NCBI GenBank assembly: GCA_021735655.1
Contig: JAIPGM010000001.1
Coordinates: 128,001-192,000, forward strand
DNA: 64,000 bases
Reading direction: 5' to 3'
Source of the DNA: Candidatus Omnitrophota bacterium
GTDB lineage: Bacteria > Omnitrophota > Gorgyraeia > Duberdicusellales > 4484-171
Shown here: piece by piece, positions 516 through 42,500 of the stretch
Layout of the letters: each line of letters opens with the position of its first letter
Position numbering within the stretch: the first letter of the stretch is position 1
Made by a program: the position numbers and the translations under genes
Notes under the pieces: model-generated
What the model saw: only the letters and a program-made list of their open reading frames with translations
The model's database searches: none
Told to the model about the DNA's origin: nothing

Positions 516-3500
516 CCGCTTGATAATGGAAAATCTTTATCGAGACGTAGCTTTGGTTTTATGGTGACCGCTTTGGGAGTGGGGTCATTTTTGACTGTTT
601 GTTCTAAGTCCTCTGATTTGAAACCGGAAGGCAATCTCATTGGGACTGGACTCACAGTAGGATTAACTTTCGCTCCTGGATTAGGAAGAAATATTGGGGC
701 ATATGAGGAGACAGTATGGACTGATCAGGATGTTGAATTTTTATGCCAAGAAGCGAAATTGATCAGAAAATTATGGAATGTTCCTTTTGTTTTATTCTCT
801 GTTTATACTCCTCCGATTGCCGGTAGCAATTACGCTCAAAGTTATCGATGGATTAAGCAGATGCATGAAGCTGGAGTTCGTCTTTTGCCACATATCTCAA
901 ACTATGATGGTCGCTATCTTCCTTCACCAATCGATATTAATGCTTGGGGTATTTCTGGTAGGGAAAAGAACCTATACAAAGATTTTATTAGGGGTTTGTA
1001 TCATGAGTTTAGCTTACGCAATGAAGAGGGTATTTTTTCTGAAACTATTGTTGGTTGGAATGTTTTTAACGAATATGATTATTTAGCTGTAAATAATCCT
1101 AAATGGTTTGCCAGAACGGGCGAGATTGAGGGATTATTGCAGGGTCTGGATGAAGCTGGGATAGTTGATAATCAAGAAAGAACAAGGGTAATACACGGGC
1201 ATGTTATCGATAATATCCTTTTAGCTACAGAGGAAACAACTCGAGGCATTATTGGAGTCTATCAAGACCTAGGTCTTGATCCTAAGCCGATATATACAGT
1301 TTGGGCTGGATTGCCGACAACTGAACAGGTTGCTAAAGTTCCTTCTTTGACTGGTTGGTCATTTAATCGTTATGATAAACCAGGCCTGTTAGAATCTTTA
1401 GAAAATGCTGCTCAGATAGTTGGTGGTAAAGAAATAAATATCCATGAGATCGGGGAGAGTTCTCATGATGGAGAGGATGTTCAAGCGATAGAGCTGGCTA
1501 GAACATTAAATGAGATAGTTGGGGCAAGAGCAAAATTTCCGAATTTGCGTCACTTTATGTTTATGAGCGCTAACGATAATCACTGGAAACCGGAGCTAGA
1601 AAGCACAACAGCAGGATACCGAAGATTTGATAGACAAGGAACTCCTTTCTATGGTCAACATTGGGGATTGTTTGCGACAATATTTGATGATGATGGCAAT
1701 GCCATAGCAGTTAGGCCGAAGAAAGCTGTCGGTGCTTTAAGTGTAGAAATTAGTAAGCTGGCTAATGCAAATAAAGCTGGTCAGCCACTTGATAATGGCC
1801 GGGATAGCTCAGCATTAGGCTCAATTACTACTCGGATTAATGTTTCAGCCAATAACCATTCAGTACAATTACAGGGACATCAACATTTAGTGGTCATTGC
1901 TCCTTTCGAAGATTTAAATCAACAGGACAGAGCTACTTTAGATGAACTTCTTGAAACCAAACTACCAATTGGTGACTATGTATTTATCGGCGAAGGAACT
2001 TTTGGTCTGTTAATGGTTGCTAAGATGGCCCTGTTAAAAAATAGCGATATCCGCGATAGTCAGCTAGCCGAACATTTAGGAAATGTCATTGAACTGGCTA
2101 GCTTGATGAATCAAGGGCTTAGCTCAACCGGCTTAAACTTAGGTGAGCCTATAGCCGAGCATCTTAATCGAGTGGTTGAATATTTTCCTTTAACTAATAA
2201 TCAGCGGCTAATAGCCCTTATTCGTAATTTAGTGATAATGCATTATGGGGAACCAGTAATGTTTTTTACTCAGTTTGCTCAAGATCCCGGTCGCTTCCGA
2301 GGAGTTTATCTATCAACCCTTGCAACCAGTCCGGAGATCATCAACCAGATGGAAATACAATATCAGAGGCAAGTACCGCTTAATAACGGAAAAGATACCG
2401 CAAAATATGTTTCAACTAAAGCAGTAATCGTACTTGGTGTATCTGGTTCAGGAAAAACTACCTTTATTGATAATTTGCTTGATGATCGGCACGACCGTTT
2501 TATTTTCCCGCGACTTACTACTACCCGAAAACCACGCAGTGGAGAAACTGCTGATCGTTATCGAGTTTTTGTTAGCCAAGAATTATTTGATTCAAAAGAT
2601 CGGGCCGATCAAATGTTAATGGTAAGAAGGGGCCGTCATGGCGGCTATGCTTATGGGTTAGATAGAGGTAATTTGGATAGGTGCTGCGCCACCGGTAAAG
2701 CATTACTTTTTGATACAACTTCAATCGCTGGGGTAGAGCGAATAAGAGAAATTTTTCCTCAGGCTGAGGTAATCACGGTTATACCTAAATCATTCGATAG
2801 GCTCAAAATTTTAAGCGATGAGCAAATTAAACGTATTCTTGAGTCGCGAATGAAGACAAGACGCATGAGTAGGGTTGATACTGAAAAACGCCTTCAGGAG
2901 GCTGTAAATGAGCTTAAAAGATTTCCTGAGCTTAAACCAGAAGTGGTTGTTGTGAATGATTCAATTGATGACTTAGATGAAAATATGACTAGATTTAATC
3001 AGGCAGCCGTGGAGTTAGTTTCTAAAAATCAGCCGTTAGATAACGGAGTCGATGAAGCGCATTGGCGACACAATCTTGACTTAAAAGGTTTTACTGAATT
3101 TTCTGATGAATATATTGATTTTCTTAAGAGAGTTGATGATCGAGAGGCTAATGATGCCTTTTGGCAACCGATCGAAAGATTTAATCAAAGATTAAAAAGC
3201 AATAAAGCTTTAGCTAGAAAACTTTTAGATTTATCGCAGATAATGCTTGATCAGGAAGTTTCAGCTGCTGAGGCTTTAATTGAGGCCTTAGCGCAAGTTG
3301 ATAATCGTAATGATTCAGAAGTTGCCTTTGAACAGGTAATTGAACTAGCGGCAGTTTTCTTAAGAAGAAATTTTGACCCGAGGGCTTCGCTCATGCATGG
3401 AGTAGTGGCTATAGCCAGTGCGGCTAAATCAGCAACTGATTTAGAAAGTTGTTTGGCTCTTGCCTTGAACATAGCCGAAGATGCTTCTTGGGATTATCCA

Positions 3501-6500
3501 CAAATAAATTTTGCAATCCAGTTTGATATTCCTTTGATTGCTTTAGAAACTAATGATCCAGAGGTTTTAGCTACTCAGTTAGAGTTTTTAGTCAGCCGTC
3601 AAGGATATTCGCAAGCTCGAGCTTATGCCCGGACCCATTGGATGTATAATTTTAGAAGAAAAAATAGTTTTCGCACTACTGATTGTTACGAAGTTGGCCC
3701 AGATGGTCCAAATTGGAAAAAAGGTTATGTTCGCAGAGGATTAGTAGAATTAATTGCTTATAAAAGATTTATTAAAGCTATAGCTAGAGCACAAGAACAA
3801 GGATTAGGCATTGAATCTCGTATAGCTACTAAAGAAAAACAAGTTTATCGTGGTCTGGTTAGGGCTGAAACTCACAGTGATTCAGGCACCTATTATACTT
3901 GGGAGCAAGATTTAATAGTAGCCGTTTGCCCAGTATTTTTAAAAGAGACAGTAGTTTCTAAAACTGATCTGACCGGTCAATTTTTCCCCGGCTTATTAAG
4001 AGTCGAAAATGATCAAGATATTAGCTTATTAGATTGGCATGTTCAGCGTGTTGTTGGTCAATTCCAAAGTTGGGTTACACATAGGCATAGAAATTTTGAT
4101 CAATGGCCACGTTGTCGACGCGATAATTTATTGCTTGAAGCTTACTTACAGCACCAGATTTATGATACCTATAAAAAATTTGCCAGTATTTGGGCTCGGG
4201 CTTATCAAGAAGCATTCATTCCGCAAAAATATCCTAAGGGGAGTCAAAATGATAATCCAGTATATTTAGCTGCAGTTGAAGCAATTGCTTGGTTAGATCA
4301 GGTTGGTGGAGTTGCCAACGAGCAACGTTTGGCCAAGCTGGATGAGCTAGACGATAAACATCAATTAGGGAGATATCGAATATTACTCCAGAAAGCTTTG
4401 CTTGAACCTCAGACTACAGGAGTCTCGCAAGTAACTCAAAAAGTTATCGGAGAGGAAGGTATTTCTGGCAAACCTTTAGATAACGGGAGAGTAAATAAAG
4501 AAGAATTAGCGGTTACAGCAGTTAAAAGAGGGAACACCTCACCGTGGCTGGCGGGTCCCCTCTCTGCTGTAGCCCCTATATATATAGGTAAACAATCGCT
4601 ACCTTTGGATAATGGTAAGTCAATTCAAGAACAATTCATTGAAGATGTAATTGTTTTTTGGAAAGTTTGGGATAAACAATATCCTAGAGATATTGAATCT
4701 AGCATTTGCGTACTCGAAGGCGTAAAAGCTTTGAAAGCCAAAGGTTATATAGTCTATTCTGGCTCAGAGCATCAATTGAATATGGCAATTGCTGGTTTAT
4801 GGAGAAATGTTTCTGAAGATGATAAGTTTGCAATAAAAGAAGCTGTACGTTTATTGGCTGAAAATGTTAGACAACATGCTGACGATAGCGGAAGATTGAT
4901 AGCCTTTTTTGATCGTGAAGATGATGTGCTTTATTTAGCTATGGTTGATGTTGGTCCGGGATTTTTCCGTGATGATGAAGGAAGACCGGTTATTCGGAGA
5001 AAAGATGATCGGTTTGAACAACGTCCGGATTCTACCGGCAGAGGGGTTGGTTTAAAGTGGGTTTCAGATCAGGTAGATGATTTACAAATCCATACGGGTG
5101 GGCATGTTAGCCGACAGCCTAAACCAACAATTGAGTCCGATTCAAGGATAGAAGATCTTAAAGGAACTTTTGTTTTTACGAAAATAAATTTAGCCAGTCA
5201 AGCCAGGGAGCCTTTAGATAATGGTTATGGAGTTTATCAAGGCAGGAGACTATATCTAGCTGCTGATCCGGTTCTAAGTGGAGTTAAAAGTATTCGGCGC
5301 GTGAATTTATCAGGTCTAACCACCAAGAGACAAAAACACACTTTATTCACTAGACGAAAAATTCTCGATTTAGTGAGTGTCCATGCTTTAGCGGCGGCCC
5401 ATGGTTATTCTTGGTTAAATGATATAAATAATAGTTATGCTAAAAACCAAGCTGATGGTGAGGTTACTTATTGGTTTGAGGTTTATTATGCTATGCTTTC
5501 CTGGTTAAAGGGAGAAATTTATAATGCTGAAGGAACTCGCGATGAGGCACCTAGTCTTTATGTCGGCCAACACGTTGGGGCTGGATTTCAAAGTGATTTT
5601 CCAGAAAGAGAAGAAGCGAATGTAGCTATCGGAATTGATCCTTTAGAGGTAACTAACGGAGTAGTTTCAGCAAAATTTCTTGGTAGTACTGCTCCGGCAG
5701 TATACGCACCACGTGGTGGGATTATGAAAATAACCGATTTAGCTTATCTTTGGGCTTTATCGGTTGGTCCGGCCGCCGGAAATTGCGATTTAAATTTAAA
5801 CTACAGCGTTAGAAAAAATATGACTAATCTAGCAGCTAGTTTAGGTAAGAAAACAAGTCAGCTCAGAGGGGTAATGTTATTCAGAGAAAGGCATTCACGG
5901 GTTCCTTTGTTGCAATTGGTTGAAAGCGGAATGCAGATAGATGAAGGTGATTCAGAACTTAGAGAATTCTTAAATGAGGCCAAACGAATCGAGGATAAAG
6001 AAAAACAATGTCAGAAGCCAAGCCTGCAAGATTTTGATAGTTTGAAGCAGACTTACAAAGCTTTTGATAGCAAGGTTAAGGCAACTGGGGTTTATCAAAG
6101 CGGGAACCTTACCTTTATTGCTGACGGGAACCTTATGCCAGCTTTAGTGGCTTTAAAGAGAGGCTCGGCAGATTTTATTTTTGACTCAGGGGGAACTTCC
6201 GAAGGAATTATGGCTGCGGCTAATGTAAGGGCAATTGGTGGAAAAATGAGCGCCCGGATTGTGCCTTATCAGGCAATGGCTGAAGGAAAGCTTCAGGCAA
6301 ACTTAGTTAAAGATAAAGATAAATTTTTAGAAAATGAACTAGCTGAGCTAGCGAGATATGGTTTTTATCCTAAAACTTCAAGAAGAAAATTGCAGCGAGG
6401 GCAATATCGTCTTAATCATGTTTTTGATGCTACAGATTTAGTCAGTGCTGAAGAAGCAGTTTTCTTGGCAGCTCACATTAAAGATAGTCCTTGGGACAGC

Positions 6501-9500
6501 AGATTGAAGGGAGTAAGATTCGACCGTTCGAGTGGTTATTTAGTCGTTGATGTTGTGGTTAGTACGACTGCGGGTGAAGTTTCAGTTTATCGGGTAACTA
6601 TGAATACAAAAGTTTCAGACGTAGAATCAAAATACGATGCGTTATATAAAGTGCGAGGATTGTCATTTAGTAGAATTTTAGACATATTTGATGGTCGTAG
6701 TCAAGCTCAGCAATTAGCTACTGATTACTATGATTTAGCTAAGGCTCTTGGAATGTTGGGTTTGTTTGAAGATGCTATTGATACATTTAGGTTTTCCGAA
6801 AATTTAAGAAGCAGTACTTATTCTTTTAGATGTCGCGCTGCTCAATCTCATTTCTTGGGGATGAAAATGATTCTAGAAGGTCAAGCAGGCCAAAACGCTA
6901 ACGAAATTGCTGCTAAACATTTTGAAGATTCCTTAGAGAGGAGTCGAAAGAGCCGAGACCCACAGCTAAGAACTAGAGAAAGGCTTATTGACCTTTATAA
7001 ATTTCTTGGTGAAACTGCAGTGAAGAAGGATGAACATCAGGATGCTGAACGTTGGTTTACTTTAGCTTTAAGAAGAGACCCAACCAACAAAGAATTGCTA
7101 GATAAGCTTAATCAAATACAAGTTTTAACTAACCAGCCGCTTGATAACGGCAAAGCCTCCCTAGAAGACCAAGCAGCTAGACAGCCTCTTGATAATGGCA
7201 AGCCTACGATTTTTTCAATTTCACCACAACTTCAGGGCACTCCTTTAGGTGAACGGTTGACGCAGCTTAATACTCTTTATCAGGAAAAAGGTACTAACGA
7301 ACAAGGCGCTAGGGCTGTAGTTGAGGCAGTTTTAGTTGAGCCGGAAATAAAACTTGAAGTCTCCCAAAGAATAAGACAGGCTGATCGCTTGGAAGAGACT
7401 CAAGGTTTTTCAGTATCAAAAACTTGGGCTGATCGTCTAAAGGATGAAGTTTTGAGCCGTTCAGTTGAAAAGTTAGTTGACCGGGAGATTTTCATATTTC
7501 AGATGGAGTATGAGTTGTCGGTGGGATTCTTGCAGGCTTTTTATGATTATCAGATTAGTTTAATGCGACAATATCGTAAGGCTGAGCTTGAAGCTGCTGA
7601 TAGCTTGGATCAGCAAACCGCTCTCGAAGCTGAAATAAGAAGAGATGCTACTCACAATACTTCCCAATTTGCTAAATTGCTTATGGCTGGTGGACTAGGA
7701 AGCTTTAAGCCGGATTTAGTCCGCGGCTGGTATCGAATTATTAAAGAATACCGTAGTTTAGCGGCTGCCCGAAATCAAATTCATGTTATGGGCATATTGT
7801 ACTCAAGTGCAATCAAGGGACAGCAGGAAAATCGAGGCTTGATGCAACTTAAGGGTCCAGCTCAGATAGCTGATAGTGATATTATCGAAACAGTTATCAT
7901 CAATCGAGCCAACCCTCAAAATGGTATGCTTGAATTAGTCGATACTTTTGAAGGGCCTGTTCCTGAATTTGGTATTGGTCAGTTAACCATTGAGTTATAT
8001 CGTAACCCACATTCTGAATTACAGGAATATTGGCTATATTGTCCGTCTCAGGTGGTTCAGGATAAATACGACGGGACTAGTGAAGTTGTTGAATGGTTGG
8101 AAAACGGAAGAGTCGTAGTTAGGCAAGCTCAAGTTTTCAATGAAGCTTATCCGGGAGAAACCTCTGATTATTGGCGGGCAGTTCAATCTTTAGTTTATCG
8201 CCGAGTTTGTTTAGAATTCATTCGTCGCGGTCAAGAGAATCGAAGGAATCATGAAAAGAAGCGAAAACCGCGCTGGGGAACTTATTTTGTCGGTAAAAAA
8301 TTACTTTTTTCAACTAGCGAAGTTAACACTACTTTAGTCATTCCTCAAGTTATCGAAGCTCAATACGGCCAGGTAGAAGATAGTCGGGGAAAGAGGGCAA
8401 AAAGAGTTATTCGCGGTGATAATTTTGCCAGATATTCTGGTTTTCGCGACGTAGTGGTTCATCATTATAACCATACGATTGTTCCAGCCGGCATGCCTTA
8501 CTATCCGCAGGATGCTGAAAATGACTTTTTTACTGAATTAAGCATTGCTGAACGATTCCGTCCGGCTATCCATGACGGAAAAATTGATTTAGTAAAAATA
8601 ACTGGTCAGGTCAGCGATGTTATCACTGGCTGCTCAACCATGCATACCCGGATTTTACGTGAGGAAATATTTGCTGAGTTTGCCGAAAAGGTAGTTGAGG
8701 ATCCTTTATTTGGTAATAGTGAAGGTTCAGATCTTGAGCGTTGGCAGGGAAGAAGAATCCAGACCACGGTTGCCCATTATCGAGATCAATTAGGGGTAAC
8801 CGGAAGCCATCAAGAGTTTTTCGCGGCTTTAGGCAAAGTTTCCGACGGACAACCAAGGGTCAAGCGAGACTTCATTGCAAGTATTTTACGTGCTAAACAT
8901 AAACAAAAAGAATTATTTGTCCGAAAGCTATTTGATGGTACTTTTGGCGATCTGGGAGTAACGGAAGCGGAGTTTAAAGCTGCCGGAAAATCTATCTTAG
9001 ATATGCCATTTTTTACTTTTGTCCGCCGTTTTGTTGATTATAAATGCCCCAATCTTATCATTGATATGCTGTTTAATAAAGAATATCGCGATAGAATTGT
9101 TGCCGCTAACGCCGTAATTTTAATCGGTGGTCGCCGCTTTAGTTGGTTTTTTGAAAAACAGCGTGAACGGTTACGTCAATTAATAAGACAGGATCCGAGA
9201 ATGAGATTTCATGTTTTATTTATTGAGGAACATAATATACATACCTCTCCGATAATGCAGCAGGGCACTGATTTTGGCGGAATGCTTTCCTGGGAAGGAA
9301 AAGAAGCCGGCCCAACTAGTTTTGGTAATGCTCAACAAAATGCTTCGCCGACTATTGGAACCTTAGATGGGGTTATCCCAGAACGTTTGAGGCCGATTGT
9401 GCGTGGCCAACAGGGAGAAATCATTAGTGGAACCGGATATGTTGTTGAATACTCACAGGAGCGTAAAGGTGGAGTAAGAATTCCGGATATTAATTCGTTA

Positions 9501-12500: not shown

Positions 12501-15500
12501 CTTAGCCTTGAGGGCCACGGTCCAGAGATAGATTTTGTACTTGAAGTTGATCGGGCAAAGTATCATCGTAACAATCAAGGGCAATATGGTAATTTAGATG
12601 AGGGAATTTATCTTGGTGAATCCAAGACATTTAATCGACAATTTAACTTAGATTTGGTTACCGAACATACAATTGATGATAAACAAAGCAAATATCGTTT
12701 AGTGGCCGCAAGGTTAAATAAGCTTCCCGATCCAGTTTTTAACGGCCGCATGAAGGGTATTGTTTTTGCTATGGGGGGAAGCTCGGTTACGGCAGCGGGA
12801 GTTCTAGAGTTTAGGTTAAGACAAAGAGAAGTGGATGAGGGATTAGAAACTTTGAGCTTAGTTGAATATGTAGCTTACATCCCGGATACTATTGATGCTG
12901 ACGAAGAGATAACTTTAAGTGTTAAGGAGGAAATTTATATTATTAAATGGGTAAGAGAGTTAGTTGAGCGGGGAGTAATTGAAGAAAATGAGGTTACCCG
13001 CGTTGAGCGTGTATTTATGGAAATAGCTTCAACTAGCAGCCGTTATGTATTACAAAGTATAGTTTGTGCAAAGTTAAGAGAAAAAACCGGGGAAGGTGAT
13101 ACTTCTTCAGCCAAGCGTCAGTCAGAACAAATTTGGCAAGAAATTATAGCTGAGCTAGAGGCTGAAGCTTTTCCAAATCGAAAACCACTTGATAACGGCC
13201 GCGATGGTCAAGCTGATTTAGCTCGTCAACAGTTAGCTGAAAGTTTGAGAGGGCGCTTGACCGGATTGCTAGATTCTGGTCTTAATCCGGAAAATAGCCT
13301 ACTTGTAACTCATGTTGGTCGACCGAATAAGGCTGGCACGCTTAGGGGTTTGGGTTTACGAGTTTACGAGATGGTTATTCAAGGAGTCAATAAACTTTAT
13401 TATGACCGACGGACTGTAAGAACCATCCCTTTATTTTCTAATAGTTTAGATTGTCCTTATCCTGGTGGTTATCATTCCCAGGGTGGAATGCTTACACCGG
13501 AGGCTAGGCAGGATATTGTTAGCCGGGGAGATGTTTTTATTCTAAGCGGAGGTGAGCTTGAAATATGCTTGCAGATGACTTTTAGCGAATTAATCGATGC
13601 TTTAAATCAAGCTGGAAGAACTACGGTGATATTTGTTCCGCTTGAAGCAACTAGTAGATTTATAAATTTAGAGTCGGCAACCGGCTATGCTGATTATTTA
13701 AAAAGCCGAGCGATAAGCTATGAAGAGTATGATTTTACTAAAAACGAGGTAACTCTAGCTCAACCGGCTACGCCACAGGTATTATTAGTTTGGACTAAGA
13801 CCGCTCAGGAAACTCTTTATTGGTTAGATTTCATAGCTAGGCATCAAAGACTTGTTGCTGAGAAACTTATTGAATCTTTGGGCTCAACTGAGGCAAATGT
13901 ACGTAAAGATGCCGCCGCTAGAATAATTACTATTGCTAAATTAATTGGTCACAACCAAGAAGATAATATATTTGGTCGTCATCCTTTAGATTGGCTTTAT
14001 GGTCATGATGACCATCGCCAGACTACGCCGCAAGAACGCAGGCTTTTATCGGAAGTTTCTTGGTTTCCTTCTGATGCTGTTCATCGAGATGAGGAGCAAG
14101 TACTTTTAACCAATCGCCGAAGAGTAAAAAGCAGAGTAACTGAAGTAAGAAAATCTTTAAGAAATAGGATTTTGTTTGACGTTAAGGCAAAATTGGAATT
14201 ATTAAAACAGCGTTTAGCTGATTCTGAAATTCAGGCTGCAGTAGATTTGGTAAGCTTTGGCTTTGATTCAAGTTTACCGGATCAAGGATCACGCAAGATA
14301 GCTGTTCTTAGAAAATTAGAGAGAAATCTCCAAGAGCTAACTACCCAGATAGAAAGGGCTAAAGCTTCTGGTAGTATTGGAGTGATAATTGTGCCTTTAA
14401 TTGATGAGGCTTTAAGTAGTCTACGGCGGCACGTAAATACGATTAGACATTGGTCGGATTATAAAAAAGGAAGCTATGTGCTTAGGCAGTTAGTTGATTG
14501 GATGGTTCGAAAGCATTTTGAGCCGCAGCATGCTCAATATCGGCAGATAAAATCAGCTAAAGTTTTGGGACGAGTCGATAACGGAGATGAAAAATTTTGG
14601 CAACTTCCGATTTGGCCGTTGGCTGATAACGGTGAGGTTGATTTAGGCTTAACTGGCTGGATGCTTACTTCGCGACAACGGGCTCCGCCAGAATATTTTC
14701 AAAGAAGAAAAGTTTCCCTAGCCGAATTAGCTGGTTTAAAACCAATCCAACTTACCTTATTTAATCTTGATGATTTTACTGGTTCTGGGCAACCCTTAGA
14801 TAATGGCCGAGTGCCTCTCGATAATGGTAAACCTTTATTAGAAAATAGAGATAAACCTAAAGAAACAGGCAGCCACCTTAGAGTAATGCTGGGTTTTCTA
14901 AGTCCGATCAGAGATGAAACCAAAATAGATGAACCCTTGAGTATTTCCGTGTTAGCTGGAGTATTAAGAGATGAGTTTAAGGGCACGGTAGACGTTGCCA
15001 CGGTCCACCCTCTTGTTGAAAAGGGAGGCCTTGAAGGGGTAAAGGAAAGGATAAGAAAAGAACAGCCGGACATCTTAGGATTATCTTTGTTTTTTGGTAG
15101 TTTAGATTATTTAAGAGAATTAATGGCTTATATACGTACTTTGCCAGAAGAAGTTAGGCCTTTAGTGATACTTGGCAATGTGTTGGCTAAATATAATTTA
15201 GGATTGATTTTAAAGGAATTTCCAGAAGTTGGAATTTGTACTGGAGAAGGAGAAAATACTATACGAGATTTTGTGCGTTATTACCGGGGGGAGATGGGTC
15301 TTTTGCAGATTACCAATTTTGCCTATATACATCAAGGGGTACCGAGAGTAAATTTACCTCAACAACGCACTGATTTGTCTGATATTGGAATGCCTCAGCG
15401 GGATATTTTTTCTCACGTCATCAGAACCGGCGGGGTCGTATTTTTAGAAACAAGCCGTTCTTGTTCGCATAATTGTGCAATGTGTAGTCGTAAGACTTAT

Positions 15501-18500: not shown

Positions 18501-21500
18501 GTTAGTCAGCTACATGAAGCCTATCAGCGTGATCCGCTTTGGCAGATGCTTTCAACTGTGCCAGCCGAGGAGATTATAGAACAAATGCGGCAGCTTTTTG
18601 TCACAGTCCCTCAGGGCGTTGATCGTTGGTTATCTGGTCTTCATGCGGTCCATCCGATTGCTAGCAGTTTTGCCGCTGAACTTTTACAGGATTCGCGCGT
18701 GCGTTATTGGCTAAGAAGATGGCATAGTGGTGATTCAGTTAATGAGCCATATCCGGAGTTATTGATGCCGGAATTAAGTCAAAAACAAAATTCACCTAAA
18801 TCAATTCCTTTGGATAACGGCCGAGTGCCTCTTGATAATGGTAAACCGTTCATGCAAAAGTTTAAACCTTCAGAAACTCTAGGCTATTCAGTGATTAACG
18901 GTCCTAGACATAGAGTGATGATTATTAATGTTTTGCCGCAAGATAAACAAGCTTCTTTAGAAACTCAAACTCAGAGCATAATTTCACAAGTAGATTCAGC
19001 CTTAGCTAGAGAGGGTTTTAATAATAGTGATGTGGTTAAACAGGATATGTTTTTACGTGATCCGAGCCAAAGACCCGAGGTTAAAGAAATGCTAGGTAAT
19101 TATTATGGAAGGGCGCCTCCGGCAACCAGTTTTATTCATCAGCCGCCGATAACCGGTGAGCTAGCTGCTACTGAATTGATTGTCATTAAGGGGGAGGGGG
19201 TCCAAGTCTACCGAGTAAATAAATATGCAACCTTAATTAATGCTGACGGACTTTGGATGCTTTATGTGGCTGGAATTGAACCGGATGCTAATTTAACTGA
19301 TACCTATCAGCAGGCCTATAATACTTTTTTAAAGTTACAGACTGTTTTAGAAGAAGTTAGGCTTGGCGCGGTAAGCTTTAAATTTGAAGATGTAATTAGA
19401 ACCTGGCTTTTTGAACGTGAGATAGTTGGTTTTGATGATCAAGAAAAAACTCAAGAGAGATATCAAAAGCTTAATCAAGCCCGACGCGTTTTATTTGATA
19501 CGGCTGATTCTGGATCAGGGGTTATTTTTGGCCGTCGTCTGCATTGTCCATCTTCTTGGCTTCTTTCCTGGCGAACGAGGATTGCTTTTTGGTTTTTAAA
19601 GTTTTCTTTTACTCATCGAATAAAGAAATTCGAAAAAATATTATTCAAATTAGCCCGAGTCAGGCCTCCGGCTTCAACCGGAATCGGTGCTTTGCCGGAA
19701 TTTCAAGCCCAAGGAATAAACGTTGCCATTGGTCCGGCTTTTGTTTTTGAAGCTTTAGCTTTGTTCGCTGAAAGTAATCGAGGCGATGTTTTAATTCAGT
19801 TTATTGAAAACCCCGAACAAACTCCGGCTCATGCTTATTCCAAAAAAGTATTACCCAAGGGAGAAAAGAAAAAGAAAAAAGCTTCCCCGGCTTTTAGCCG
19901 TGGTATGGCTGTATTTATGGATTACATTTGGATAATCATTTCTGGAACAGCTTCAGTTAAAGGTGAAAAGGTAGTCTCTGTTGGTGATGTAAGAGGTCAA
20001 GCTGAGACCACGATTGATAATTTAAGATTAGTAGTTGGTCAGGCTGGAGCCCAGTTAAAAGATATACCGCAATTAAGAGTGTATATCAAGAATTGGCAGG
20101 ATTATCAGACTGTAAGGTCGGTAGTTGAAAAGCATTTTCCCGATACTCCGGCCCTATATCTTTTGGCTGATGTCTGTCGGCCAGAGTGGTTAGTTGAAAT
20201 TGAAGCCATGGCTTTTATTCCTCGAGAAGAAGGGGTTTCTAAGCCTTTAGACAATGGTAAAAATAGAATTCGGCAAGGTGAGATCTGGTCTCCTCACCGT
20301 GGCTGGCGGGATCCAGCTCCCTTGCCGGATTATATATCTGTTCCGCTCGACAATGGCAAAAGAACTCTAGATTCATTGCCAACCAGACTCAGGGTTTTCT
20401 TAAGACTTAATAATATTGATCCAGCTAAAACTTATTTATTTGCCATGAGCGGCGGTGATTGTGCCGGGCCAAATTCAGCTTATTATGGTGCAGTTAGAGA
20501 GGCTGATAAATATGGTTATAAAGTATTAGGGGTGTTGAATGGTTTTGAAGGGTTAGGGGCTAATCCGGATTTATTCGTTGATCAACTTATTTATATTACT
20601 TCCGAAGGCATTGAGCGATTAAAAGGAATGCCGAGTATTCATGTTGGGTCTTCTCGGGCTAAATTTAAGGATAAACGCGAAAATATTTTAGTTAATTGCG
20701 CTGCTTTTGCCGGAGTAATTTTTGTTGTTGGTGATGACCATTCTAAGCAAACCGGCGAGCTAGCTGAAAGCGGCATAGCAACTATAGCTATTCCCAAAAC
20801 TATTGATTATGACTTTTTGGCGGAATCTTTAGGGTCACATAGTGCTATTTCTGAGGCCCGGCGACTTTACCTACGGGCTCATCGCATGGCCCAAGAGGAT
20901 CATTTTGTTCAAGTTATTGAATTTATGGGACGTGATGCTGGCTGGCTAACCTTTTTGGCAGCTCAGCAGGTTGCTGGAGCTAACTTTATTCTTCTCCCGG
21001 AAAAAAGCGCTGGCTTTAAGGATGTTTTAATTAAAGCTTTGTCAGTTATTTTAGAGGAAGGTTATTTGACTATCGCTATGGCTGAAGGTTATAGCTTTAG
21101 AGATTTCCAGGAAAAAGATCGTATCTTTGGAGGGCCGCTGTTTTATAAATTCTTAGATATTATACCGTTTCTTAAGGCTAAATTTTATTCTAAAGGCCAA
21201 ACCGATGTACATGGTAACCCCAAATTATCAGGAATAGCTGAGTACTTGTCTTTAGCTATTCGTTATTTGCCACGCTTGGCCAAGCATGATGCCGATATAA
21301 ATAGGCTTTATCAAGCGATTAAACTTAAGTACCCACATTATTTTGGTACTGACTTGCGTTATAAGGCTAAGGGCGAGGTAATGCAGAATGTTCGTTTATC
21401 GATTTTAGGCTATATTTTAAGAGGCCTTCCTTCAGATGATTACGATACTAGATTGGGAGAGGCTTATGGAAGAGCCGCAGTTAGGTTACTTCAGGCCGGA

Positions 21501-27500: not shown

Positions 27501-30500
27501 ACCTTTATTGAGAATATAGCTAAAATTCAGAGTACTATAATTTCAGAGATAATGAGAAGGTTAATTCAAGTTGATGAGCGGCTCGATCAGTTACTTGAAC
27601 AAATTGAACAAGAAGGTTCAGAAGTTAGCCAAATTTTAACTGAGCTATCTGAGGTATTTTCTGATATATATGGTTTACATTTTGAAGTTTGTATAACTAC
27701 AGCTAGTCGTTATCTTACAAAAGGTAACGATTTAGTTAAGGAAATATTTCAATATTTTCTTGATAGATTAGATGAGGCGAAACCGCTTGATAATGGCCGA
27801 AGACCTAGGCGGCGTTCAGATAAAGGTGAAAGTAAGTGGGATATTTTAGATCGGTTTAGCCAAAAACTCAGAACTGTGGATACGGAAGTATTAGCGGACG
27901 TAGACCAACAAAGAAGCATTGGAGCTAAGAGAAGAATTTTAACTAGAATCGGTATAGATGAAGCTAGCCAATTAGACGGAGCTTTCTTGCTAGGCGCAGT
28001 TAGCAAAGCCTTAAAGCGCCAGGTTGGAAATTTAAGCCATGATTCAAGCCCGATTACCGTAACTGAGCCGCTTATTTATGCTGGAGTTGGTCGTTTTCTA
28101 ATTTGCTATAAAGATGAAAATATTGACGATGGCCTAGCAGTTAAAATTGCTAGCAGCGAAGCTTCTTTGCGTAATGCTGATCTTTATTCTTTAAACGGAG
28201 TCCGCATCGCCATTAATCGTTTAGGCACAGGCTTAGCTGCCAGCACAATGATTATTGATGCCCGTTGGCCAGAGGTTAGGTCTTTTGTTTTTAACGTTAT
28301 TGATCAAGCTGGACATCCTAGAAGGATTGAAACTCAAATCGCTATCGTCCAACAAAAAGTTTTACCGTTAATTGAGTATTTAAAACGTTTAGGTCGTCGA
28401 GGCTCTAAGGACCAAGATGTATTAAAGGCAATTACCTATGTTGATAAGTTTAAACAGCTTATAATTGCTATGTATAAACAAGGGGTTATTGATGATGATA
28501 CTTTTAATATTGTGGGAAATTACGGGATATTAAAGGTTAATGATAGTATTGTAATTTTTGATCTCGGTGATCTTTCTGATTCAGCTGATCGAGCTGCAGG
28601 TTTTGTTAGAAATTTAGATAGCTACAACCAACAGATGTTTGAAGCCTTTTTAGAAATAGACGGTGTTTTCCTTGATGAACGGATTGCCGATTATTTTATA
28701 AATAACCCGTTAAAAAGAGAAGATTTTATTTCTGGCCAAGGAGATCTATTCGGATCCGAATACGATCGGGAAAGTTCAAGAATGGTTTTCCCTTACGATG
28801 AGGAAACAGTAAGGATGTGGGGGGTTCGGGCTTTTGATTTAGTAAGCCCCGATACAGAGGCTAGCCAGCAACCACTCAATAATGGAAAAGCTAGGACTAT
28901 TTCTCGTTTTGAACAAGAAACTAGAACTGAGCCTTATCTTGTTCCTGAAGCTGAAGGCGTTGTATATCAAGCAGTGGCTAAATTTTTTAGAGCTAATGGA
29001 GATAGCCAGACATTTAGAGTTCTAGATCTTTTCAGTGGAGCCCATACCTATATACCGACCTTGAACCAAGTTCAGGTTGAAGAGTGTATTGGCGTAGGCA
29101 TAAGGGCGCAAGAGTTAGAATTGAATCCTAACTTAAAAGGTAACCCTAGCTACTTAGTTTTAGATTTAAATCAGGATAAGTTGCCTGAGCAGTGGAATCA
29201 GCGTTTTGATTTAGTCTTAGTGGTTAACGGGGTAGCTTACGTTGAGGATCATTTCAGATTATTTGCTGAGGCTGCAACTGTGACTAGACTCGGTGGCAGA
29301 TTATTAGTTGTTTTTACTACTGAAGCCTATTCTACCGAGATTTCAAAAACTTGGAAATATTTAGGTAGCGGTTCTTTAGGCCAGAGAAATAAAATTAGAC
29401 ATATTAGTGAATCAATAGCTAGAGTTCGCCAGTTTGGGCCTGTTGCCCATGGACATTTTACTTATACCATTCAACATGGCTTAGATATTTATGATAAGCC
29501 TTTAGAAATCATTACTGCGGTCAGAAAGAGTAGTGCTATTCCGCTCGATAACGGTAAAGTGCGTTTGCCGATAAGTCCTTTGAGGTTAGCTTCGTTAGTA
29601 ATAGTTCCCTGGTTTGCTATCGGATTATCGATTTATTTTGGTGATTGGTACGTTGATACAGTTAAATCATCGGATTTAAACGCAATGTTAGTTAAAGGGT
29701 TTTTAGGTGGTCTAGCTTGTGGTTTTGGGATGTATGTAAAGCAGACAATTAGTGGCCAAACCCTGAGCCGTAAAAATTTCGGAAAGATACTTCGTTGGAC
29801 TTTAGCCGGATCAATATATTTAGGTTTAATTGTTTTTGGTGCCTGGTATGGATTTTTGAAAGCTAATGTTCCCAGTGATGTTTGGAAGGTTATTTTAGAT
29901 ATAACTTTATTTTCAGCTTTCATCGGTTTACCGCTAAACTATTTAATTCAAAGATATATTGTTGACTATGACAGCTACCGTAAAAAAACAATTAAAAAGC
30001 ATATTGTTAATTATCTACGTCTTTGGATTTTTAATGCCAGCTGGTGGGGATTTTGGTTAGGCCTTTCTTGGTCACTTTGGCCGGATAGTATCGACCTTAT
30101 TGTGGCCAATGTAAGGATTATTTGGTCCGGCATATTTATTTATTATCTTAGTGAGTGGGTTGAATCTGGTTCAAGTAGTCTACAAGCGTCATCTAAACCA
30201 CTCGATAACGGCCATCAACCGCGTAAAATTATTTGGATTAATTTTGGTGGTTGGCGCGGCTATTGGTTTGCGGCAACCGGCATTGAAACTTTAGCCGGTT
30301 TTATTGAGAAAAATTATTCCGGCGAGTTAGAGCAGGAAGTTTTTTATTATAACCCTAGCCAGATTACTCAATTTAGCGAGCATCTAAGTCAGGCCTCAGC
30401 TGATTTTATTTGTTTTTCAGTTAATCCGATGTATTTTGATTTGGCTATGGATTTTGCTCAAGAGATTCAAGCTAGTTTAGAGGCTTCACCTAACACGAGA

Positions 30501-33500: not shown

Positions 33501-36500
33501 GAAATAGCTTTGTTTGACGAAGCCAGTATCGGAAATTTTGAACGCCTTGAGCAGGATGGTTACTTTGATGGACTTGATTTATTTTTTGCCGAAGACCCTC
33601 AGATAGTCGGTCTAATACCATTGATCAGGGCTTTTTATCCAGAGGTTCATCTTGCTTGGCGTTGTCATATTGACACCTCTACTCCTAATCGTCAAATTGC
33701 CGAATTTGTTAGCGATATGGTTAGCGGCCGTCTTGATCCAGTACGGGATAAATTACTCTATGACTATCTTTTAAAGCGTTTAATGAGAGAGGGTATGATT
33801 GGAGCAGCAGTTGATTTTGAACAAATGATGCAGGCTAATTCCCTTTCGGTTAATCTTGCCCAAGTTGCGACTAGAAGATTGTTGGCCGATATAGCTATTT
33901 ATCACACCGAAGAATTTGCTTTAGGATTACATCTCCAAACTAAAGGCGTGCCAACCTTTATTATGCCTCCGGCAATTAACCCTTTTAGTTATAAAAATAT
34001 TCCCCTAGCTGATAATTTTATTCGGGCAACTATGGTTAAATATGGTTTAGATCCCAATAAATTTACGGTTGTTGAAATATCACGTTTCGATCCTTTTAAG
34101 GGGCCGCTGGAGGCCATTCAGGCTTTTGTGCGTTTATTTTTGGATAATCCGGGATTGCAGAATGATTTACAATTTGTTTATGCCGGAAATATGGCTGACG
34201 ATAACCCTAAGGGAAAACGCGATTTTGAAAAGATCGATGCCTATTCTCGCTATCTTAGAAAGAAATTTCCTAAACTTAGGAAAGCCTTGTTTTTGCTCGG
34301 TCTTGGGAATAAACCCGGGACAGTAGCCTTAAATTGGGCCCAGAGACGCAGCTTGCGTGTTGGTGGTCAGTTTGCTCGGCCATTTTCTCGGAAAGAGATA
34401 GGTCGACTCAACGGTGTTGAGATAAATGCTCTTGAGGTTAATGCTTTACAGCAACAACTTGAGATGGAAAAAAGAGACGGTAGGTTAGTTATTTCTTTAC
34501 CGCGTAAAATAGCAATACAGCCTTCATCAAAAGAAGGTTTTGGCTTAGTGGCGGCTGAGGCTACCGGAAAAGGTACTCTGGTTATCGCTTCTTTGATCGG
34601 TGGCCTTAAAGCGCAATTAAAGGATTTGCTTGCGCAAGCTTCTTGGTTGGGCATTAACTATACGCCGGAGGAAATTAGTCAATCTTTAGAGGTGTATGAC
34701 TCAATGGATTCTGATCAGCATAGAGGTGTTGTTTTCGATGTGGCTTATTTGGAAAGAATTAATTTATATCAACGGCTTAATCAACGAGAATTCGTTTTGG
34801 GTTTAGCTACCTCTCTGCGGGTGGCTTACGAACTGGCTCATAAAAATCCAGATGTCTATCGAGAGCTCGGTTTAGCTGCACGTTGCCAGACTTTAGATAA
34901 GTTTATTACTCTAGCTAATGTTGAGAACCGCTTAGCCGCCGCTTCCTTGATTGTTGATAATCAGCAGCCCTTGGATAATGGTAAGCCAGAAGTTCCGATG
35001 CCTTCTTCTTATTGGATCGATCATAGCCTTCTTCATGAAATTGATAATGTTTGGGCTAACTTGGATTGGATTAATCCCGGGCCAAGTTTAAGCATAGCTC
35101 GCCAGATTGAGAAAAATTTTAAGCCAGCACAAGAGCCAGGTTTTTTAAGAGTTAGCATAGATGCCTTTGGTCCGCTTAACGGATTTAAAAATCAAGTATT
35201 AGCTGAACATGAGCAGTATTTTGATTCCGAGGTTTATAAAGATTATCGAGCTGGCATAATTCATGCTATTGATAATCTTTGGCAACACGGCGGAAAGTAC
35301 GGTGCCTTATTTTTGATGGCTCAGCTTAGAGGACGAACCGTACGCTTTACTTATTGTTTGCTAGATCGCGGTGATGGTTTTATTAATGACGATTACAACC
35401 ATGTTCGTTTAGAAGAAGCCGTTCAGGCACATAGAACATTTAAACGAGCCGGCAAGAATGGTATGGGCCTTTATTATATGGCGATAAAGCCGGATTATTT
35501 TTCAATCACCGCGGTTAATTGCTACCGGGCTGTTGCCACAACTCAAGCTCACTATTGGGAAACTGGCTACACTAAAGAATGGCCGTTTTGCCCGCAACAA
35601 ACTCCGGTTAACAAGGGGGTGCGGGTGATTTCGGTAAAGGATGTAGCTTTAGGCCTTTTGCCATTTTCGAATATGCAGCCGTTAGATAATGGCCGTCGAA
35701 CTGATGAAGAACGCCTGGATTTTATCGGATTTTTAGTTGAGTCATATTTAGAGGCTTTATTTACTTTCCGGAGGTTAAGAGCAAATAACAGCGAAGTAGC
35801 CGAGATGTATCTGCCAGCAATTTCCGAAACTGCCGTTAGAAAGAAACGAGCCAAATGGGTAGTTACAGCTGTTGAGGTTGCCCGTGAGGCATTTCAGGTT
35901 ATGGCTCGAGCTGATTTTCGACATTCATCCGGCTTAACCATTCGTTCAATCTTTGATTCAATTTTGGCTTCTGGCGGTCGCAACCAAGCAGCTAATGATC
36001 TAGGAGTCGATCGCGCTAGCCTTACTCGCTGGATGCATAGCTTACCTAATGATTTATTAGGTGGGTTAGATCCAGAATTAGCAGTCTTCAAACAAAGAAT
36101 CCTTGATTTATTTGATGAAAACAATACTCGACCCCTAGACAACGGTAAAGAAAATATAGATTTATTAGCGGTTACAGCAGTTAAAAGAGAGGACACCTCA
36201 CCGTGGCTGGCGGGCCCTCTCTCTGCTGTAGCCCCTATATATATAGGTAAACAGCAGGGGCCGCTAGATAACGGCCGAGCGCCTTTGGATAATGGCCAGC
36301 CAGCTAACTTTTGGAAAGTTTTGCATTCTGGTATATACGTACTTCCGATATATTACACTCGACTTTTCGATACAGCTAAAGACGCAGGAATTGGAAAATA
36401 TACTTATGTAGTGCCGTTTGTTCGTGATCATGTATTGTCTTTAGGCCATCAAGCGATACTTTTCTTACCGTTTTCTTTGCAGTTACCTTGGTCGCAATCT

Positions 36501-39500: not shown

Positions 39501-42500
39501 AAGCATTCTGAGCCGGAATACTCACTACAGCGACCTTTGAATAATGGCCTAGGCATACTTCAATATTTACAATCTTTACGTCGTAGCCAGGAAACCGAGG
39601 CTGCTAGAAGGGTTAGTCTAGACCAAGGCTTTGGGCAATTAAAAAGTTTATTAGTTGAAAAATTACAGTCGATTGATTCAACCACTTTAAGCATTGCAAA
39701 TCTTGATCAGGCTTTGAATGAAGATAGCCAGGCGATATTTTTAACCTTAGAGCAATTAAGAGAGGCACGCTTTCAGGCTGAGAGCTTTCGTAATGGGCAG
39801 GTAAGTATGTGTGATCTTGCTAGCCTAGCTTTGGCCGCTGCCAGCGAAGAAGTTTTTGGCCAGAGACACTTAGTTAAAATAGTTGTTGGCTATTATCGGG
39901 TTGATGAGCAGCTATATAAAAAACATTATTGGGTTGTGATTGATGAAACATTGTTGATTGATATAACTTATGGTCAGTTTGATCCGGACCATCTCAATCG
40001 TATTTTAGTTGCTACAGTAGATGATTACTTGAGATTAAAATTAGAATATGGTACAGAGTTAGAGCCGCTTGATAATGGAAAACAAACTCAAGTTCAGCCT
40101 ACTTGTTTAGAGGCTAGGTGGTGGAATAATTATTATCCCGGGGTTATCGAAGGAACTGGAATAAGGCCGACTGCCCGCTCACTTAGCTTTGAGCAGATCG
40201 AAGAAGTGGTTTGTCTATTACTTCTCGATCAAGCCGGCCAGGAATTGGTAGCTAAAATAATAAATAGAGAACTGCCCGATGTATATCCTTCGGTTCGAAG
40301 AACCGCTCTTAAAGCTATGGTCAGGTTCGATCATTACGAACTTTTTGGCCCGAAGATAATTACTTGTTTGCAGGATGTAGTCAGAGATGGAGCTGAGATG
40401 TATCAGCCTTTTGCTCTTTATGCTTTGGCTCAGACCCCGGCTTTTAATGGCCCGGTTGCCAATAGATTTGCCGAGGAAGCACTTAAGGGGACCCTTAAAC
40501 CAAGCCCAAGAAAGCCTACCGCAGCCGAAAAAACTGCCTTACAGGAAGGGTTAGAGCCAAATACTCAAGCGATTAGATTTAAATCCCGGCTTGCTTCAGT
40601 TGAATATTTAAAAGGAGTTTTAGCTCAACGTCAAGGTTGGGCTCGGGTTTGCCTCGGAACAGTACCACATTTTAGTCGGGTTAGCAATCGCGCTTTAATC
40701 AATAAATTTGCTGCTCAGGTATTAGCAGCTGATAAAAAGCTTTCTTCTAGTTCAGCTCAGCGACGCCAGAAAGATAAGTCAGAATTTTGGGGTCTTGAGC
40801 AAGCTGAGTTTATTCATCCAGCTACTGGCCATGAAGCTTTGGTTGAGCTGGCCAATGATCCGGAGTTATCATCTAGTGATGAAAGTCCTTTGGTTGATCA
40901 AATACTACATCAGATGGAGGAATTAGGTTATGTGCCGATATTGCGACCCAGTAAATTTCAGCTTACTGAGCCAGCTCAAGGTCAGGAAGCTGAAATTGAT
41001 CGCGAGGCGCTTTGGACCAAGGATGCTGTTTTGATGATTTCTACTAAATTCGGAATAGTTCCGGTTTCTTCAGCATTAGCCAATCTTAAGGGCGGTGAGT
41101 TCGTCAGTGGCTATGGTAAGCGCGGCAGCTTTATGATTATTCCGGCAGCCGCTCTAAATTCAAAACAGCAGCTATCTGATATAATTCCCGAGGTTCCGAT
41201 TCATGTATTTCCTTCGGGATTTTTGGTGATCAATGATCAGGGCGTAATTCGTTTAAGAGGAACCTCGCATATTGACACTTCTTTAGGAGCAATTCCGATT
41301 ATGGCCCGGCCAGAATCAGGCCAGTTGATGTTAATCGATCCTTTGTTGCATCAGGTTGCCCGTACACACCCTCGCTATCGCGATCACTATCAATCAGTAG
41401 TTCAAGAAGATGGAGTGCGTTTTATTGATGTGCCCGAGCCTGAACGTCATTTAAATCCTGCTAATTTTGGTATTCTTCCCGGTGGAGAAATATTTATGCC
41501 TTATGCGCCGCGGACTAAACAAGTTTTAATTGAGGCTGGGGTTAATGAGCAGTATATAATAATGTTACCAAGTGAATTTAATAAGTATTTACCAACCCTT
41601 CATGTTTTGGCGGGGAGTATTGGCTGTTTAGTGGCCCAAGCTTTTCATCCGGTTGAGAAGCGAGAGCCGCTCGACAATGGCCATGAAAAAGAAAAACGGC
41701 AAACTAGATCCCGAGCAATAGATATATCAACCAAAGGTGCTGAAGATTTATTGTTTACTGAGCTTCAAACAGGGAGTTTAGTTAGTTTAGTGGTTGATGG
41801 CCTTGAGTATTGGCTTAGCCTTGACCAGGGCGATGAAGTTTGGTTTGATTTATATCGGCCTAAAGATGATATCATTGGCTATATTTATTTTCGAAATGAC
41901 GCAATGCCAGCCAGAAAAATAGCCAATTTTGGCGGCCCGAGCATTGTTCCGGCTTACCGGGGCAGGCATTTGTCGCGAGTTCTTTATTTTGTTTATTTTC
42001 GTTATCTTTGGCGCAATAATTATATCCCTGAAGAAGACTGTTTGACTATCGATGATCGATTGGCCCTAAAGCTTTATCATGAAGCTAAAAAGTTTTATTA
42101 CGATCAAGACCATACCTTTACTCCGTTTCAGATTATTCCCCGAGCCGAAAAGACTAAAGCTGCAAAACCTTTAGATAATGGCCACGATATGGTTCAAAAA
42201 CAATTATTTGAGTTAATTAAGCGTAAGTCAGATTCGATTAAAACTTTCTTAGAGCCGTTTGAAGCTTGCCTTGCTTACAATGGAGTGTTAGCTTTGCTGA
42301 TTCGAGGAAGGCCTGACTTGAGCGTTAAATTTTTGCTTAAGAAGATTGGCTCGGCTGAGCATTGGTTTTTACTGGCTGAAACTGTTTTAGGAAATCATCA
42401 GTTTGTGGTTGATATTTCGCCGCAAGGAAAGATGTTTACCGATATTGAGGTGCTGGTTGTAGATTGTGCTGAAGCCGGAAAAATAAATTATCTATATGAA

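Follow-up and report, generated by a model that had tools for sequence, protein, structure and literature searches.

A hairpin with an invariant tip recurs in frame within giant open reading frames of Omnitrophota and a Planctomycetia-labelled genome

A conserved hairpin at module boundaries of a giant ORF

We found a structured nucleic-acid element that recurs inside giant open reading frames (ORFs) of Candidatus Omnitrophota, starting from a stretch of 64,000 nt (hereafter the window; positions 128,001 to 192,000 of contig JAIPGM010000001.1, assembly GCA_021735655.1) that carries three copies. The element is a long hairpin with an invariant tip on variable stems. It is conserved as nucleic acid, specific to the sense strand of giant ORFs and placed after a linker peptide at the end of protein modules. 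It is the first conserved nucleic-acid signal found inside Omnitrophota giant genes, and a clean example of a presumably functional RNA or DNA structure kept within an ORF independently of the reading frame. Tentatively, we read it as a cis-acting element of the giant transcript.

The three copies in the window lie, in the sense orientation, in a single stop-free ORF on the forward strand (1-63038, stop codon at 63036-63038). The ORF was listed as 9-63038, or 21,009 amino acids (aa), which is a minimum size, since the window begins inside the open frame, within the LEVGTGSG motif of a methyltransferase. No in-frame stop occurs across its 63 kb. The peptide PLDNG, nearly always followed by K or R, appears in 58 exact copies (starting at 516, 1785, 3033, 4473, 4602 and so on to 62805) and divides the ORF into 59 modules; the variants PLNNG and PFDNG are also present. 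We refer to these peptides as linkers, and they are a peptide signal rather than a DNA one, since their synonymous third-codon positions vary freely.

The hairpins share the 19-mer CCTCACCGTGGCTGGCGGG, which is found three times in the window, always on the forward strand and without mismatches, with zero occurrences expected by chance. No further site within three mismatches is present in the window, and 100 shuffles gave no match. The element copies are the sole nucleotide-level repeats in the window besides linker-coding DNA (repeat families D2 and D11).

Copy A sits in a spacer module of its own (4488-4601), 38 codons long and bounded by PLDNG linkers at 4473-4487 and 4602-4616, whose peptide (RVNKEELAVTAVKRGNTSPWLAGPLSAVAPIYIGKQSL) would be a by-product. 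Its hairpin (4511-4574) is made of an 11-bp outer stem, a 5-nt bulge on the 5' side, a 6-bp inner stem and a structured tip with the 19-mer (4537-4555, including the 14-nt universal core ACCGTGGCTGGCGG at 4541-4554), and is followed by the tail TATATATATA (4577-4586). Copy B, its paralog, also occupies a spacer of 38 codons (36147-36260), preceded by a linker at 36132-36146 and followed by two consecutive linkers (36261-36275 and 36282-36296), with the hairpin at 36170-36233, the tip at 36196-36214 and the TATATATATA tail at 36236-36245. Copy C has the same tip (20292-20310) on unrelated stems (hairpin, 20267-20331) and the tail TTATATAT. Its spacer (20259-20342) has 28 codons and a phase that differs from A and B; the linker upstream (20244-20258) comes directly after the C-terminus of a RidA-containing module and the one downstream (20343-20357) leads into a phosphofructokinase module. 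All these features are on the forward strand, and the tails of all three copies are UA repeats.

The window hairpins measure 65-73 nt and have minimum free energies (MFE) of -33.3 (A and C) and -33.0 kcal/mol (B), with z scores of -4.27 (A), -4.05 (C) and -3.85 (B); none of 200 shuffles was as stable. Two folds are predicted for the tip, a 4-bp CCGU/GCGG mini-helix with the loop GGCUG and an unpaired CCUCA before it, or CC/GG pairs flanking GUGGCU. Between A and B, the core that runs from TTAGCGG to GGTAAACA has four differences in 89 nt (95.5% identity), and similarity can be traced over 144 nt at 83% (4472-4615 versus 36131-36274), with about 60% identity in the rest of the 38-codon spacer. 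Given the equal length of the spacers and the contrast between the core and the remainder, A and B look like an old duplication in which the hairpin has been under purifying selection. The inner stem shows one double compensatory change (G-C to A-U) and two single changes that shift the internal loop.

Much of this had been anticipated in an earlier note on the window. Its figures for A and B (about 85 nt at about 93% identity) were close to the measured ones, its two linker-flanked spacers of 38 codons are there, and the long hairpin that it proposed, with the 19-mer at the tip, folds in all three copies and withstands the comparison with shuffled controls. The third copy was rightly said to be read in a different frame (phase 0, against phase 1) but not to be partial, as it is a complete hairpin. 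The compensatory change claimed for the inner stem of A and B exists as the one double change, next to the two that shift the loop, and compensation is far stronger between lineages.

Copies in other genomes

An exact search for the 19-mer in one genome per prokaryotic species gave 20 loci. In four of them the 19-mer is at the tip of a long hairpin; the remaining 16 are isolated matches in sequence of 51-74% G+C with no hairpin. Three of the hairpin loci (L001, L002 and L018) belong to metagenome-assembled genomes (MAGs) of Candidatus Omnitrophota and the fourth (L012) to a Planctomycetia-labelled MAG. A metagenome scan added L032 and two adjacent stretches of one 105-kb contig (L035 and, directly following it, L025) with copies 7.6 kb apart, and a mismatch-tolerant scan of the hairpin loci found a second copy in L001 (L001:6459), with the tip ACCTACCGTGGCTGGCGGA. 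There are thus eight copies beyond the window, in five other assemblies (two in L001 and one each in L002, L012, L018, L025, L032 and L035), and 11 in total, of which about six are evolutionarily independent. The genome and metagenome searches required exact matches, so diverged copies are under-sampled. The host genomes of the copies range from 33 to 49% G+C.

The controls gave no such hairpin. About 158 chance occurrences of the 14-mer core were examined, in viral and high-G+C loci, and none was at the tip of one; a scan of viral contigs returned one chance match to the 19-mer and at least 120 to the 14-mer, and none of those examined had a hairpin. Homologs of the RidA module are ordinary Omnitrophota proteins of 1,000-1,700 aa (loci L046-L051), and these six loci contain no copy of the element (core within three mismatches plus hairpin).

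All 11 copies lie in a stop-free frame, which exceeds 1,950 codons or is open over the whole retrieved stretch (341 codons in the 1-kb locus L025), and all are sense to this giant ORF, with none intergenic. The tip is read in phase 0 in C and L032, in phase 1 in A, B, L012, L018, L025 and L035, and in phase 2 in L001a, L001b and L002. Copy C and the L012 copy, which are positional orthologs, both follow an orthologous RidA-containing module (63% protein identity) and are nonetheless read in different phases. It is therefore the nucleic acid that is conserved and not the peptide, as the earlier note had held. The 19-mer that it took as invariant is complete in 10 of the 11 copies; since L001:6459 keeps only 14 nt of it, the invariant core narrows to ACCGTGGCTGGCGG (written as ACCGUGGCUGGCGG, with the usual form CCUCACCGUGGCUGGCGGG). 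The TATATATATA tail, supposed to be in all copies, is restricted to A and B, and the tails in other genomes are U-rich. With copies present in other genomes, the element is more than a simple local segmental duplication.

Every copy folds beyond its shuffled versions (z from -1.9 to -4.9), with lengths of 65-95 nt and stabilities of -25 to -42 kcal/mol. The stems are unrelated between lineages and yet they pair: matched arms have a mean duplex energy of -35 kcal/mol versus -17.6 kcal/mol for arms taken from different copies, among which low energies are found only between related copies. Between C and L012 the lower stem (CGGCAAGG/CCTTGCCG) is kept and the upper stem differs by double compensatory changes. 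A MAFFT alignment of the 11 copies is not structural and leaves the stems unaligned. A U/A-rich tract comes after the 3' foot in all copies (UAUAUAUAUA, UUAUAUAU, UUUCUUUUAAUU, UCUUUUGUUUUU, AUUAUUUUGAU and others), and an A-rich tract is often found before the 5' foot.

The location is also recurrent. The hairpin comes directly after the C-terminus of a module, which is RidA in the window and L012, glycogen-synthase-like in L002 and trehalose-synthase-like in L018, the last two being glycosyltransferases. Where a linker can be recognised, it immediately precedes the hairpin; its form is PLDNG in the window, SLNNGG in L012 and xDGG in both L001 and L002. L012 has seven linkers of the SLDNGG type, and xDGG occurs six times in each of L001 and L002, against about 0.9 expected; the second L001 copy has DGG on both sides.

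Some traits of these loci deserve mention on their own. L018 and the contig of L025 and L035 are 92-94% identical, and the last 40 nt or so before the L018 hairpin resemble the flank of the L035 copy. Relative to L002, L001 has at 4818-6550 an extra membrane module, with motifs that by eye are CPBP/CAAX-protease-like (EExxxR, FxxxH), and a second hairpin. The extra module sits between the shared hairpin and the shared downstream module, and the stretch after the hairpin shared by both loci has a low-complexity-like translation, yet with the island DMGGNKAGP in both. Hairpins are nearly evenly spaced in the window (15,755 and 15,904 nt), which may be a coincidence, with spacings elsewhere of 7.6 kb (Ga0190286 contig) and 1.7 kb (L001).

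A candidate cis-acting RNA element

The reading that we favour, and hold tentatively, is that of an RNA hairpin acting in cis: placed at module boundaries, it would recruit a factor to its tip and so control how the transcript is elongated, how its 3' end is formed or how stable it is, while cleavage linkers insulate its junk peptide. We infer that it acts as RNA, that a trans factor exists, that transcription or stability is affected and that the linkers are cut by proteolysis. The giant transcript, nascent or mature, would fold into the hairpin, and a conserved trans-acting factor would bind the invariant tip; hairpin and U/A tail would then influence elongation, termination or the stability of 3' ends at particular module boundaries of a gene of more than 60 kb. 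The hairpin could be an intrinsic terminator or attenuator that works conditionally, could protect a 3' end or, in the opposite sense, could be where a processivity factor is loaded. A stem of any sequence would suffice if paired, and the tip would have to stay. Under this proposal the element is kept free of stops in any frame because it must sit within the ORF, there being no intergenic space. Through the upstream linker, the finished enzyme would already be free when the ribosome reaches the hairpin, and the downstream linker, usually present, would detach the junk peptide on read-through. Module dosage could then differ along an otherwise equimolar polyprotein, and transcription could abort when translation is uncoupled.

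Strand asymmetry in the predicted folds is consistent with this idea. Folded in the sense orientation, the 11 hairpins have 46 G-U pairs versus 21 in antisense, which gains A-C mismatches. In the seven Omnitrophota-type copies (L001a, L001b, L002, L018, L025, L035 and L032) the sense RNA is predicted to be more stable by 2-14 kcal/mol, and C and L012 are strand-neutral. With DNA parameters, the antisense strand of L035 folds no better than shuffles (z -1.1). These data favour a sense-strand RNA and leave some room for a role as single-stranded DNA (ssDNA). A GC-rich lower stem followed by a U-rich tract is seen in L018, L035, L025, L012, L032 and L001b, and A, B and C have UAUAUA tails. Of the three kinds of candidate in the earlier note, the best fit is that of a cis-acting structured RNA or of a site on the giant mRNA where a factor binds, and its action at the RNA level is presumed.

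Several points weigh against this reading. The RNA-level role is putative, as is the tip-binding factor, and intrinsic termination within a translated ORF would yield non-stop mRNAs. The element is not required at each boundary, since 3 of the 58 carry it, and with about six independent copies the statistics on orientation and location are modest. Copies from the same genome (A and B; L025 and L035) are more alike than copies from different genomes, which duplication or mobility would also explain. In A and B the antisense strand folds slightly better, and with DNA parameters most copies still fold significantly. UA repeats, and not U runs, form the tails in the window, and simple consensus scans for promoters and terminators over positions 1-40,000 showed no excess and made no call at the hairpins, the terminator scan skipping A, B and C because their loop exceeds 8 nt.

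Extending this reading to a general principle is more doubtful. It would mean that giant polyprotein genes of Omnitrophota and related bacteria of the Planctomycetes-Verrucomicrobia-Chlamydiae (PVC) group carry in-frame RNA cassettes, that is, hairpins with an invariant tip in a translated spacer of their own, whose junk peptide is cut at double-glycine-like linkers and whose factor governs elongation, termination or stability. If true, this would be a new way to embed non-coding control elements in a gene without intergenic space, on transcripts of tens to hundreds of kb, and PLDNG, SLDNGG and xDGG would be the first defined cleavage signals of giant proteins. The element would also be a mutable handle on transcript processing or termination in giant genes, and, used along with the linkers, it allows giant proteins to be divided informatically at natural boundaries.

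Alternative explanations

A selfish or mobile palindrome, similar to Rickettsia palindromic elements (RPEs), repetitive extragenic palindromic (REP) sequences or miniature inverted-repeat transposable elements (MITEs), could spread in giant genes and be tolerated as long as it is in frame between linkers. The element is indeed palindromic, in frame, translated, present in several copies per gene and flanked by AT-rich sequence, and paralogs of the same genome are near-identical amid unrelated modules (A and B; L025 and L035). Gene order also breaks next to the hairpin in three comparisons: the modules downstream of the hairpin differ between copy C and L012; L018 (reverse strand, 4324-5578) has, relative to L025 and L035, a 1.25-kb insertion that ends exactly at the 5' foot of the hairpin; and an additional module and a second hairpin set L001 apart from L002, with different upstream modules. 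We nevertheless consider such an origin unlikely. Terminal inverted repeats would correspond to the outer stems, but these have unrelated sequences in different lineages and the tip alone is conserved, the reverse of MITEs, REPs and RPEs. In this small sample all copies are sense within giant ORFs, although intergenic insertions should be better tolerated, and the indels seen involve whole modules beside the hairpin and not the bare element. Copy C has kept its orthologous position over a divergence to about 60% protein identity, its stem evolving by compensatory changes, and the equal spacers, diverged flanks and conserved core of A and B point to an old duplication under purifying selection. 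A Pfam search of the window modules found no transposase nearby, and the shuffling of modules between the window and L012 also takes place at linkers without a hairpin. The MITE or RPE-like insertion suggested in the earlier note is thus poorly matched. As for the TA target duplication that was part of that suggestion, TA/AT-rich sequence is found on both sides of the hairpin, where it is indistinguishable from A-rich and U-rich extensions of the stem, and the codons of the flanking PLDNG linkers are identical at 14 of 18 positions.

A device at the level of translation, in which the hairpin slows the ribosome at the boundary (for folding, membrane insertion or linker cleavage) or stimulates recoding or bypass, seems to us quite unlikely. 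It would agree with the placement on the sense strand of an ORF, just past a linker and the C-terminus of a module, with the high stability of the hairpins (-25 to -42 kcal/mol) and with the Gly codons of the flanking linkers, which could be read by the same tRNA in B and C. However, stability alone leaves the invariant 14-19-nt tip unexplained, and most boundaries lack the element. Programmed bypass (of the T4 gene 60 or mitochondrial byp type) and a bacterial selenocysteine insertion sequence (SECIS) or other recoding hairpin can be rejected: all 11 copies have an open, in-frame spacer, which would be translated rather than bypassed. The Gly codons flanking copy A differ (GGG versus GGT), the downstream modules are in the same frame and need no frameshift, the 63 kb contain no in-frame stop, and no conserved heptamer precedes the hairpins.

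A folded ssDNA or cruciform site, serving for attC-like cassette recombination, as a nick or priming site for an HUH protein or primase, or as a recombinogenic palindrome, is improbable. The significant DNA-parameter folds would suit it, as would the module 3' ends beside synteny breaks, which recall cassette boundaries, and rolling-circle and ssoA-type origins typically combine a variable stem with a conserved loop. On the other hand, the Omnitrophota copies have more G-U pairs and a better stability as sense RNA, the L035 antisense DNA is unstructured, and most module junctions have no element. Integron attC sites conserve the base of the stem (R/L boxes) and not the tip, the opposite of what we see here, and a Pfam search of the window modules gave no integrase, Rep or relaxase domain.

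It is highly improbable that the giant mRNA is cut into segments at the element, whether by a new self-cleaving ribozyme or at an RNase processing site. A conserved and partly unpaired tip on a long helix, the location at module boundaries and a giant mRNA that plausibly needs processing would fit this, but the element is a simple hairpin with a 14-nt core, smaller than known self-cleaving folds. A search of 400 nt to each side gave no conserved partner with which the tip could form a pseudoknot, neither a start codon nor a ribosome-binding site comes after the element to restart translation, and there is no match to a ribozyme or any other Rfam family at E values up to 10, so that the ribozyme of the earlier note could at most belong to a new class.

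The Rfam searches, against families that include ribozymes, riboswitches, EAR, SRP, tmRNA and 6S, covered the whole window with Rfam 15 at the gathering threshold (no match), the loci L001, L002, L012 and L018 at E values up to 1 (no match) and the element alone at E values up to 10, where only generic hairpins resembling microRNA precursors came up, with 10-20 bits versus gathering scores of 50-116. Resemblances of the tip noticed by eye (a 10-bp complementarity to the 530 loop of 16S rRNA, the 5' end of 5S rRNA, the 3' end of tmRNA and the ops site of RfaH) are within chance by our own estimate.

Comparison with known systems

By analogy, the cis-acting element that we propose would work most like stabiliser or attenuator hairpins or antitermination hairpins, its architecture is most like that of the picornavirus cis-acting replication element (cre), and it appears to belong to none of the systems compared. 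It is similar to intercistronic REP or stabiliser hairpins and internal intrinsic attenuators of long operons (malE-malF REP, rplL-rpoB) in that a coding unit of a long transcript ends in a stable hairpin, with a U/A-rich tract after it and a possible role in setting different dosages upstream and downstream. Those are untranslated and have short loops, whereas here the structure is translated, 65-95 nt long, with an invariant structured tip of 14-19 nt and UA-repeat tails in the window. Processive antitermination signals (HK022 put RNA, EAR RNA, the leader hairpin bound by LoaP, and RfaH ops) are likewise cis elements of very long transcription units with a sequence-specific hairpin, and they are recognised by RNA polymerase or a NusG paralog. 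Unlike the element, they are located in leaders or intergenic regions; we found no sequence or covariance-model similarity to them (Rfam including EAR) and no linked NusG paralog.

The picornavirus cre also has an invariant apical loop on a variable stem, within a polyprotein ORF and at a position that varies among lineages, and its function is purely at the RNA level. It differs in that it templates VPg uridylylation in RNA viruses and its codons encode functional protein, while our element is found in cellular DNA, encodes a junk peptide and has a dedicated spacer. RPEs share with it the size (about 100 nt), the in-frame translated palindrome, the several copies per genome and the conservation at the nucleotide level. 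They are conserved along their full length and lie inside functional proteins; in our element conservation is limited to the tip, with covarying stems, each copy has its own linker-bounded spacer, and copies have one orientation and are found only in giant genes, in PVC bacteria. Integron attC sites resemble the element as imperfect palindromes at the 3' end of cassettes, with structure prevailing over sequence and a fixed orientation to the ORF, but they conserve the R''/L''/L'/R' boxes and extrahelical bases and vary the tip, and in the window no integrase was found and 3 of 58 junctions have a copy. A translated linker-bounded spacer in a giant polyprotein gene as the housing for a structured cis element is apparently undescribed.

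The host ORF and its linkers

Giant genes of Omnitrophota reach about 147,000 codons. The modules of the window ORF are complete, ordinary metabolic enzymes, as seen in a Pfam search: PCMT methyltransferase, guanylate kinase, GlpX fructose-bisphosphatase, phosphofructokinase, a glycogen-phosphorylase-like enzyme, B12/radical-SAM proteins, RidA, trehalose-synthase-like and other glycosyltransferases, 4-alpha-glucanotransferase, glutamate dehydrogenase, a PLP decarboxylase and an invertase-like hydrolase. Loci related to it come from Omnitrophota MAGs. With more than 21,009 codons and GT1, GT2, TreT-like, TPR, FBPase and PFK domains, the ORF resembles, by its sequence, the Archaeovorin class of giant genes, described in Omnitrophota and uncultured PVC bacteria as ORFs of tens of thousands of codons with domains of glycosyltransferases, TPR and glycolytic enzymes (West-Roberts et al. 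2023, bioRxiv 10.1101/2023.11.21.568195). That study states that the cleavage points of the giant proteins are unknown. Neither recurrent linkers nor a nucleic-acid hairpin are mentioned in it (10.1101/2023.11.21.568195) or in a preprint on complete Omnitrophota genomes (Nielsen & Lui 2026), and a search of the literature on PLDNG linkers, the tip core sequence and Omnitrophota polyproteins found nothing relevant.

The linkers PLDNG, SLDNGG[K/R] and xDGG look like cleavage or release sites of the double-glycine type. The first visible module (9-515) is a protein-L-isoaspartate O-methyltransferase (PCMT) domain, and every linker of the window contains Asn-Gly, the sequence most prone to the formation of succinimide and isoaspartate; a tie between the PCMT module and the Asn-Gly linkers is speculation. 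Linkers are found in tandem, delimiting "empty" modules of seven codons, at 14793-14834, 18807-18848 and 36261-36296 (PLDNGRVPLDNGK twice, PLDNGRAPLDNGQ once), the first two with 83% nucleotide identity over 53 nt.

For modules 3-5 (3033-5210), around copy A, no Pfam match was obtained and no homolog at E values up to 1e-5 among 5.8 billion proteins. This protein collection seems to be largely devoid of fragments of giant ORFs, since the L012 ORF was not returned for the module shared at 63% identity.

Other features of the window

A sliding MFE scan placed the three hairpins among the top local structures of the window, not as unique outliers. Four other 100-nt segments within the ORF (5681-5780, 27671-27770, 40921-41020 and 50821-50920) fold as strongly relative to their G+C content (residual z from -3.5 to -4.2). 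The short linker-bounded spacers of modules 7, 30, 56 and 9 are unstructured. That of module 45 (47643-47726, 28 codons) contains a perfect 10-bp hairpin (TTCCCACTTC-CGA-GAAGTGGGGAA) that bears no relation to the 19-mer element, and as a whole is no more structured than shuffles (z -0.6).

A scan for tRNA and tmRNA genes in the window gave none, and there is no hairpin or terminator between the giant ORF and the gene that follows it. This separate gene (63080-64000) begins 42 nt past the giant ORF stop and, judged by eye, would code for a secreted solute-binding protein of an ABC transporter of the peptide/nickel type.

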